In this document: positions 3-2,332 of the stretch, piece by piece | Layout: each line of letters begins with the position of its first letter | Numbering within the stretch: position 1 is the stretch's first letter | Sequence record: PZ049727.1 | Length of the DNA stretch: 2,363 nt | Source: a phage | Strand: one strand, 5' to 3' | The notes under the pieces: model-generated | Seen by the model: the letters and a program-made list of their open reading frames with translations, nothing else | Told to the model about the DNA's origin: nothing | The model's database searches: none | Made by a program: the position numbers and the translations under genes

Positions 3-251
3 TGGGCGGACTACCAGCTGTTCGGCAAGACCTTCTTCGACACCCTGGACTACCTCACCACCAATTGGTTGATGCCGCTGGGCGGGCTGGGCACGGTGCT
101 GTTCACCGGCTGGGTGCTGCAGCGTCACGTGGTCAGCGAGGCCATCGGCATTCGCAACGCCGGGCTGTTCCAGGCCTGGTGGAAGCTGCTGCGCTACGGC
201 ACGCCGGTGGCTATCGTGCTGGTATTCCTCAACCTGCTCGGGCTGATCTAG
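3..251 (+). CDS. C-terminal fragment of an integral membrane protein, probably a secondary transporter (sodium-dependent/NSS-like family is a best guess); 5' end lies outside the window
   Basis: Frame 3 is open from the window edge to TAG at 249-251. Translation ...WADYQLFGKTFFDTLDYLTTNWLMPLGGLGTVLFTGWVLQRHVVSEAIGIRNAGLFQAWWKLLRYGTPVAIVLVFLNLLGLI* is hydrophobic and TM-like with strong G/C third-position bias. The listed ORF 69..251 is the Met-initiated tail of this frame. The overlapping frame-2 ORF 2..439 is Arg/Ala/Gly-rich and reads through the terminators, so it is taken as spurious. Family assignment is from memory of sequence character only. Confidence 0.6.
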   Translation, partial: WADYQLFGKTFFDTLDYLTTNWLMPLGGLGTVLFTGWVLQRHVVSEAIGIRNAGLFQAWWKLLRYGTPVAIVLVFLNLLGLI

Positions 252-282
252 CGCGACCTGCGGTCGTCCGTGCAGAACGCGC

Positions 283-300
283 CGGTGGGCTGAAGCCCAC
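283..300 (+). repeat. GC-rich hairpin without T-tract (GGTGGGC-tgaa-GCCCAC), a near copy of the terminator hairpin at 383-400
   Basis: Stem 284-289 (GTGGGC) is the reverse complement of 294-299 (GCCCAC), with loop tgaa 290-293. It is followed by ggtacaagg, not a T run. It shares the GGTGGGCT / AGCCCAC core with 383-400. Confidence 0.4.
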
Positions 301-316
301 GGTACAAGGACGCTGC

Positions 317-338
317 GGGCTTCTCAGGAAGCCCTTTT
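317..338 (+). terminator. Rho-independent terminator-like hairpin plus T4, probable terminator of the upstream transporter gene
   Basis: Perfect 7-bp stem GGGCTTC (317-323) / GAAGCCC (328-334), loop tcag (324-327), then TTTT (335-338). It lies 66 nt downstream of the stop codon at 249-251, on the same strand. Confidence 0.55.
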
Positions 339-382
339 GGTGGGCTCAGGTCCATCCATCGAGGCCGACGCCGGCCTTGGTG

Positions 383-406
383 GGTGGGCTTCAGCCCACC
401 TTTTTT
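383..406 (+). terminator. Rho-independent terminator-like hairpin plus T6; probable DNA target structure of the group IIC intron inserted 3 nt downstream
   Basis: Perfect 7-bp stem GGTGGGC (383-389) / GCCCACC (394-400), loop ttca (390-393), then TTTTTT (401-406). The intron 5' end GTGCG starts at 410. Class C group II introns are known to home downstream of intrinsic terminator stem-loops. Confidence 0.7.
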
Positions 407-409
407 ATG

Positions 410-2262: not shown

Positions 2263-2292
2263 CCGCCGTGTACGGAACCGTACGCACGGTGG
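2263..2292 (+). ncRNA. Group II intron domain V (catalytic hairpin)
   Basis: The lower stem pairs CCGCC (2263-2267) with GGTGG (2288-2292), including one G-U pair, and contains a CGC triad at 2264-2266. A 2-nt AC bulge sits at 2286-2287 on the 3' strand. The upper stem pairs GTGTACG (2268-2274) with CGTACGC (2279-2285), with loop GAAC (2275-2278). This is the canonical domain V architecture: about 14 bp, a 2-nt bulge and a triad near the base. It starts 2 nt after the RT stop codon. Confidence 0.8.
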
Positions 2293-2294
2293 TG

Positions 2295-2332
2295 TGGGAG
2301 GACGGCGGCCGTGAGGCCGCCTCCTACCCGAT
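2295..2332 (+). ncRNA. Group II intron domain VI with bulged branch-point adenosine, and 3' end of intron
   Basis: Distal stem GGCGGCC (2304-2310) / GGCCGCC (2315-2321) with GNRA-type loop GTGA (2311-2314). Proximal stem GGGAGGA (2296-2302) pairs with TCCT (2322-2325) and CCC (2327-2329), leaving A2326 bulged, which is the expected branch-point geometry. The intron is inferred to end 6-7 nt later, at ...GAT (2332). Confidence 0.65.

Follow-up and report, generated by a model that had tools for sequence, protein, structure and literature searches.

Domains V and VI and the 3′ boundary of a Pseudomonas class C group II intron

Gene content and boundaries of the intron

The window, that is, the whole stretch of 2,363 nt from sequence record PZ049727.1 that was analysed, contains a group II intron with its encoded protein, located between the end of a transporter gene and intergenic sequence upstream of a dioxygenase-like gene. 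The features assigned are listed below by position, strand, and description, with the basis for each assignment in brackets.

1 to 251, + strand: 3′ end of the upstream NSS/SNF-family sodium-dependent transporter gene, with its stop codon at 249-251 (open reading frame list, homologues)
379 to 406, + strand: 5′ exon target, comprising the G+C-rich hairpin GGTGGGTGGGCTTCAGCCCACC at 379-400 and a T-run at 401-406 (terminator scan, fold)
405 to 409, + strand: IBS1, UUAUG, five bases that end the 5′ exon (complementarity to EBS1, register across intron types)
410 to 2332, + strand: complete class C (IIC) group II intron of 1923 nt, GUGCG...GAU (empty site, copies, Rfam)
540 to 709, + strand: part of domain I, Rfam group-II-D1D4-3, RF02001 (139.1 bits, E = 3.9e-30)
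633 to 637, + strand: EBS1, CAUAA, in the 8-nt loop 631-638 of the hairpin 627-642 (alignment of two intron types)
745 to 829, + strand: region of domains II-III, Rfam group-II-D1D4-1, RF01998 (55 bits, E = 1.4e-8)
840 to 2261, + strand: intron-encoded protein of 473 aa in domain IV, with reverse transcriptase (RT) and maturase (X) domains (open reading frame list, Pfam, PDB relatives)
2263 to 2292, + strand: domain V, 30 nt (folds, Rfam, covariation)
2295 to 2330, + strand: domain VI (folds, covariation, compensatory changes between close relatives)
2331 to 2332, + strand: last two intron bases, AU, with the 3′ splice site after U2332 (empty site, relatives, repeat-sized contig ends)
2333 to 2363, + strand: 3′ exon, intergenic sequence upstream of a 4-hydroxyphenylpyruvate-dioxygenase-like gene (continuous with 409 in contig L012, described below)

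The transporter gene, which has homologues annotated as sodium-dependent transporter or NSS family symporter, is oriented on the strand of the intron in the window and is also located upstream in three related loci (L012, L013, and L014), and a Glyoxalase_5 gene is present downstream in L013 and L014. The two Rfam group-II-D1D4 matches both lie upstream of domains V and VI. The frame of the intron-encoded protein is intact and includes YADD; Pfam identifies the RVT_1 (2e-43) and GIIM (4e-23) domains, and no HNH/endonuclease domain was found in the Pfam scan. The best solved relatives all belong to class C and include the GsI-IIC RT (E = 4.9e-137), the protein of the E. rectale IIC RNP (2.4e-103), and the R. 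intestinalis (2e-80) and E. rectale RT fragments at about 1e-80, whereas the IIB TeI4h and IIA LtrA proteins reach only about 1e-38. Relatives of the protein number in the thousands. Among them is P0002 (473 aa), identical over the aligned 418 aa, for which the NCBI name is group II intron reverse transcriptase/maturase [Pseudomonas aeruginosa]; translation of the corresponding gene in locus L001 gives exactly P0002.

Candidate start codons are located at 840, 879, 936, and 1005, of which gene callers variously choose 840, 936, and 1005. The region homologous to the GsI-IIC RT starts with the ATG at 1005, and the 55 N-terminal codons (840-1004) overlap ribozyme/domain IV sequence; because these codons are without a counterpart in the GsI-IIC RT, ATG 1005 may be the real start. 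A single base separates the stop codon TGA (2259-2261) from domain V, and in many relatives TGA is retained at the same position.

The limits of the intron are defined by contig DJFT01000056.1 (L012) from a related Pseudomonas, which carries the target site without the insert and was reached through a search with the truncated upstream transporter fragment that returned only short gene calls. Window positions 3-409 align with 4064-4469 of this contig and positions 2333-2363 with 4470-4500, at about 97% identity, and the empty site reads GGTGGGCTTCAGCCCACCTTTTTTATG/CGCGACGCCATTGCGCC (in short form ...TTTTTTATG/CGCGACGCC). Because L012 joins 409 directly to 2333, the inserted unit is exactly 410-2332; a target-site duplication is absent, and a register moved one base to the left or to the right fails to give the empty site. 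Precise insertion, the lack of a target-site duplication, and an empty allele are the features by which a mobile group II intron is recognized, and all three are observed here. A preliminary description of this DNA, made from the letters alone, had placed the 3′ splice site at about 2332, give or take 3 nt, and the empty site sets the end at the DNA level at exactly 2332. The ligated exons are predicted to read ...UUUUUUAUG/CGCGACGCC across the 409/2333 junction, i.e., ...CCCACCUUUUUUAUG/CGCGACGCCAUUGCG.

Other copies of the intron end at the same base. When the window was compared with L001, which encodes the identical protein, and with L002 to L011, which encode an 88%-identical protein, similarity stopped after ...CCCGAT or ...CTCGAT, equivalent to 2332, at nine distinct sites, the next base being C or T; loss of similarity after ...CGAT at at least nine independent insertion sites thus bears out the boundary first proposed. 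The 5′ junctions read ATG/GTGCG in the window type and TGT/GTGCG in the related type. Full-length copies (1-1923) with 99.6-99.7% identity are found in P. aeruginosa CP142450.1, Stutzerimonas chloritidismutans AW-1, and P. nitroreducens TX1, and the 1923-nt intron is 99.9% identical on the 55.7 kb P. aeruginosa plasmid NZ_ON248939.1, with each of these four copies (99.6-99.9%) located behind a different terminator. The occurrence of near-identical 1923-nt copies at different sites and in different hosts points to recent horizontal spread. In these public copies the protein is annotated as ltrA or as group II intron reverse transcriptase/maturase, and the feature table of NZ_ON248939.1, the only one checked, gives the protein gene ltrA alone, with no ribozyme boundaries or domains. 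Relatives with 86-87% identity are carried by many Pseudomonas megaplasmids.

Intron copies are also found at contig ends, and several repeat-sized contigs end exactly at 2332. Many draft contigs of about 1.9 kb (1,920-1,925 nt among those of protein relatives), including L019, L022, L028, L036, L037, and L043, have their ends at the intron termini and represent repeats collapsed by the assembler, providing an incidental and independent read-out of the boundaries.

Structure and conservation of domains V and VI

The 70 bases from 2263 to 2332 form domain V, the catalytic hairpin, and domain VI, the branch-site hairpin, at the 3′ end of the intron. The preliminary description had drawn both domains in this interval by eye and had recommended folding 2255-2340 and aligning the region with class C 3′ ends, and its drawing is upheld by Rfam, folding, and covariation. 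On the + strand, cmscan matches Rfam family RF00029 (Intron_gpII) at 2261-2332 with 48.4 bits (E = 7.3e-8), above the gathering threshold of 40 bits; the match is full-length (model 1-77), and the model ends at 2332 with its last consensus bases, ‘Au’, on A2331-U2332. Minimum free energy folds of 2255-2340 and of 2263-2332 both return the two domains as originally drawn, and the 70-mer has a folding z of -5.66, with 0 of 200 shuffles equally stable.

Domain V consists of a 9-bp lower helix that includes the triad pairs C2264-G2291, G2265.U2290, and C2266-G2289, a bulge formed by A2282-C2283, a distal stem of 3 bp (2272-2274 with 2279-2281), and a GAAC loop (2275-2278). Its 30 nt compare with a 34-nt Rfam consensus, the difference appearing as a 4-column gap in the alignment. 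The catalytic triad C2264-G2265-C2266 is CGC, as had been read by eye, where the Rfam consensus has AGC at the aligned positions. The description of CGC as the variant of crystallised class C ribozymes also proved sound, as this triad is stated for the O. iheyensis IIC ribozyme, in which C358, G359, U375, and C377 are the metal ligands (PMC6294511). In the alignment, C2264, G2265, and the A2282-C2283 bulge correspond to the metal-ligand positions of O. iheyensis.

[quoted passage not shown] Above the bulged A2326 are four pairs, a bulge at C2303 in the 5′ strand, which the preliminary description had left out, and a 7-bp distal helix closed by the tetraloop GUGA (2311-2314), which is the GNRA loop that had been claimed. 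A2326, described from the start as a single bulged A, is the sole unpaired base of the 3′ strand in the folds and is the predicted branch point; six bases, 2327-2332, lie beyond it.

Conservation was assessed from an exhaustive HMMER search that yielded 150 diverse representatives, of which 36 were aligned, the alignment leading to 80 loci drawn from one-genome-per-species contigs. These loci span Proteobacteria, Acidobacteriota, Firmicutes, Chlamydiia, Spirochaetia, Cyanobacteriota, and others, and nearly all of them carry the module AACCGCCG...CGGUGGUGUG...CUAC.CGAU 3′ of the protein gene. In the 17 gap-free sequences every pair cell of the structure is paired (100%), and 10 of the 27 pairs show compensatory changes. 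A covariance model built from these 17 sequences gave 88 matches, from which 73 distinct sequences were analysed; in this alignment, which was fitted to the model and is hence biased towards the structure, unlike the ungapped alignment of 17 sequences, 98.2% of pair cells are paired and double changes occur at 19 of 27 pairs (7 of 12 in domain V and 12 of 15 in domain VI). The covariation score of the 73 sequences is 0.423 versus 0.130 in shuffles, none of 500 shuffles reaching 0.423, and slid registers are only 33-52% paired. The triad pairs are near-invariant (C-G in 73/73, G.U in 72/73, and C-G in 73/73). Domain VI shows compensatory changes even between close relatives, from GGG/CCC to GAG/CUC and from GGCC/GGCC to GGGU/ACCC.

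Alignment with class C 3′ ends shows that, once two parse artefacts are corrected by eye (L046 and L076, which read 6 and 7 nt), 51 of the 70 distinct relatives have the bulged A at 6 nt from the end and the other 19 have it at 7 nt; the CGC triad is present in all 70, and the terminal AU in 69. These data bear on where the RNA is cut. Alternative or shifted use of a 3′ splice site a few bases away from the DNA boundary at 2332 is highly unlikely: surrogate sites are used in vitro by engineered IIC constructs (PMC4748821), but retrohoming inserts exactly the excised intron, the empty site in L012 has no register ambiguity, the Rfam model ends at 2332, and neither the AU ending (69/70) nor the 6- or 7-nt distance from the branch A (70/70) varies beyond these limits. 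From the DNA insertion boundaries and homology, we infer RNA splicing at 2332 with A2326 as the branch nucleophile.

A second alternative is that the hairpins are a terminator or a REP-like repeat that merely follows an RT gene. The intergenic DNA of the locus is rich in REP-like G+C hairpins, as such a reading would have it, but no T-run follows the domain V and VI hairpins, the RF00029 match is above threshold, covarying conservation is seen downstream of homologous proteins in distant phyla, and the hairpins lie within a 1923-nt unit that is absent from the empty site. With no T-run, with covariation, and with membership of a mobile unit, this explanation was rejected and its likelihood is considered negligible.

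Two structural variants were observed among the relatives. Those with the 7-nt spacer end in ...CUAU(C/G)CCGAU and have a 4-bp domain VI basal helix; they are mostly from Acidobacteriota, alpha-, and beta-proteobacteria, include L056, L058, L064, L068, L071, L073, L075, L081, L083, L084, L088, and L090, and match the ‘+1 bp’ clades that Monachello et al. linked to protein-independent branching. The Halomonas/Marinobacter-type introns (L022, L028, L030, L034, and L043) have a domain V of 31 nt rather than 30, with an extra base in the 5′ strand (CCGCCGUGGUACGG...) and UG in place of AC at the bulge position.

Class C assignment and exon recognition

Introns of class IIC are small, have a domain V distal stem 2 bp shorter than that of IIA/IIB introns and a CGC rather than an AGC triad, carry an AGGAA-containing bulge in the epsilon-prime region of domain I, recognize their exons by IBS1 and IBS3 only, and are located downstream of terminator motifs; they often self-splice by hydrolysis (PMC1702495, Toor et al. 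2006). They are also without an endonuclease domain and insert at terminator motifs (PMC4424553). In the window intron, GUGCG at 410-414 corresponds to the 5′ GUGYG of group II introns, AGGAA is found at 562-566 within AAUCUGAAGGAAGCC (555-569), identical to the RF02001 consensus (AAUCUGAAGGAAG, conserved in Rfam), and A2326, at 6 nt, agrees with the class C position of the bulged A 6 or 7 nt from the 3′ end. At the level of sequence, all class C hallmarks tested are present: the triad, the short domain V, AGGAA, the terminator site, the EBS1-IBS1 pairing, and the protein. The class C identity given in the preliminary description is therefore supported by RNA features, protein relatives, and the terminator insertion site, and the element, which had been catalogued before, is confirmed as a typical bacterial class C group II intron from Pseudomonas.

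The CGC triad, short domain V, and AGGAA are shared with B.h.I1 (Bacillus halodurans), O.i.I1 (Oceanobacillus iheyensis), Ta.it.I1, and GsI-IIC, as are the short EBS1-IBS1 pairing, the 5′-exon hairpin with T-run, the 3-bp/6-nt domain VI, and the endonuclease-less RT and X protein. These terminator-inserting IIC introns are from Firmicutes, whereas the host of the window intron is a gamma-proteobacterium (Pseudomonas/Stutzerimonas). In the Firmicute relatives L092 to L094 the protein has 46-49% best-segment identity to the window protein and domain V differs from that of the window intron at compensated positions only, whereas the domain VI distal helix and loop differ, with GUGA in the window versus loops in the Bacillaceae copies that are longer and not of the GNRA type.

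In most IIC introns the domain VI basal helix is 3 bp and the spacer 6 nt, while A.v.I2 and a small number of other clades combine 4 bp with 7 nt, and the 3-bp forms are poor at branching in the absence of protein (PMC4748821, Monachello et al. 2016). In O.i.I1, lengthening the basal helix by one base pair raised protein-free branching. A.v.I2 (Azotobacter vinelandii) is a terminator-associated, branching, self-splicing class C intron from the same family, Pseudomonadaceae. With its GGG/CCC helix and 6-nt spacer the window intron has the majority IIC form and is set apart from A.v.I2 by the published description of the latter; membership of an A.v.I2-like clade with a 4-bp basal helix was rejected on the 6-nt spacer. 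U2295.G2330 could be counted as a fourth pair, but O.i.I1-like sequences would then have a fourth pair too. The IIC-attC introns, which insert at integron attC sites, are of the same class and likewise recognize a DNA stem-loop (PMC4424553); the sites of the window intron, a hairpin and T-run downstream of a gene, are unlike attC. No specific account of a named Pseudomonas IIC intron emerged from the literature search.

The insertion site resembles an intrinsic terminator, with the T-run at 401-406 ending 3 nt before the intron, and the hairpin at 379-400 doubles as the 3′ arm of the longer 339-400 palindrome. At 9 of 9 distinct sites of the intron and its 86-88% relatives, a G+C hairpin and T-run particular to the site are found upstream at equal distance, and at the compared sites the upstream gene is on the strand of the intron. 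REP-like hairpins crowd the intergenic region 252-409: those with the pattern GGTGGGC-N4-GCCCAC(C) lie at 284-301 and 379-400, and positions 339-400 make up a near-perfect palindrome of 62 nt. Four REP-like hairpins are present at L013, a related empty site; the one used by the intron is the last, and only this one has a T-run.

EBS1 and IBS1 were assigned from two intron types. The loop at 631-638 reads GCCAUAAU in the window type versus GCACAAAU in the related type, in which EBS1, ACAAA, is complementary to the exon end UUUGU in the same register as in the window type. The predicted 5-bp EBS1-IBS1 pairing thus covaries between the two types, which independently fixes the 5′ splice site at 409/410. 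Among relatives the loop of EBS1 is highly variable and its stem is kept.

C2333 is presumed to be IBS3. All 4 sites of the window intron type have C as the first 3′ exon base; over 76 distinct sites, this base is T at 33, C at 30, G at 12, and A at 1 (C or U at 63/76). No EBS3 was found when covariation of this base with the domain I internal loop was examined in an nhmmer alignment of 60 loci; the candidate G625 (A in some relatives) and the invariant A626 showed no consistent Watson-Crick pairing with the exon base. Introns with A at position 625 often have G as the first base of the 3′ exon.

Because G625 does not covary with the exon base and G occurs at 12 of the 76 sites, including those at which the ‘exon’ is another intron copy, it is conceivable, though doubtful, that a canonical EBS3 of the domain I loop does not read the first base of the 3′ exon in introns of the Pseudomonas lineage and of its relatives. 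Were this so, occupied terminators would stay available as targets, leading to head-to-tail intron arrays, and 3′ exon recognition would be largely dispensable for class C retrotransposition in nature. Tandem class C copies in head-to-tail arrangement, in which ...CGAT is directly followed by GTG(C/T)GCC of the next copy, were observed in L027 (1000-2930 and 2931 onward), in L068 (683-755 and 2855-2927), and at the 3′ junctions of L057 and L048, although L048, a contig of 1983 nt whose ends overlap, could be an artefact of assembly. Tandem copies likely arise from re-insertion at the same terminator and IBS1, which are intact after the first insertion.

Splicing, mobility, and significance

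Taken with its context, the 2263-2332 segment almost certainly forms the 3′ end of a class C retroelement (410-2332) that is complete and apparently active and lies after the terminator-like hairpin of the transporter gene. By analogy with studied IIC introns, read-through transcripts would fold into the ribozyme, in which domain V would dock into domain I and the CGC triad and AC bulge would form a triple helix binding two catalytic metal ions; triad and bulge bind the catalytic metals in the O. iheyensis ribozyme (PMC6294511). Domain VI would then present the 2′-OH of the bulged A2326 for attack on the 5′ splice site 409/410, which would be positioned by the EBS1 (633-637)-IBS1 (405-409) pairing and the upstream hairpin, and the freed 5′ exon would attack the 3′ splice site after U2332, six bases beyond the branch A.

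As with other IIC introns that have a 3-bp basal helix, branching here probably depends on the bound intron-encoded protein, with hydrolysis expected to predominate in the naked RNA. An intron excised by hydrolysis only, as linear RNA, in which A2326 is conserved but unused and lariat mobility has been lost, is improbable. Most 3-bp/6-nt IIC ribozymes do self-splice by hydrolysis in vitro (PMC1702495, PMC4748821), and the window intron has this geometry, but the protein switches studied IIC introns from hydrolysis to lariat formation (PMC7161350, Smathers and Robart 2020) and its frame is intact in the window intron. The bulged A and its flanking pairs are also kept, with covariation, in all relatives, and the near-identical copies at five sites on different replicons speak for recent mobility, which requires complete reverse splicing.

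In the preferred reading, splicing through a branch at A2326, the lariat-protein particle would reverse-splice into DNA after other terminator hairpins and the RT would copy it into DNA; reverse splicing and reverse transcription would explain the precise 1923-nt insertions at many sites. As the intron is intergenic and follows a terminator, its splicing would not be needed for host gene expression. Domains V and VI would matter mainly for making the mobile lariat particle.

There is nothing new in the element itself, which is of an already known kind with already deposited copies, and the result has no bearing on open questions of group II intron mechanism. It places the ribozyme of a Pseudomonas class C intron at exactly 410-2332, with otherwise little import beyond annotation, and the pair of occupied and empty sites could serve as a control for automated calling of intron boundaries.
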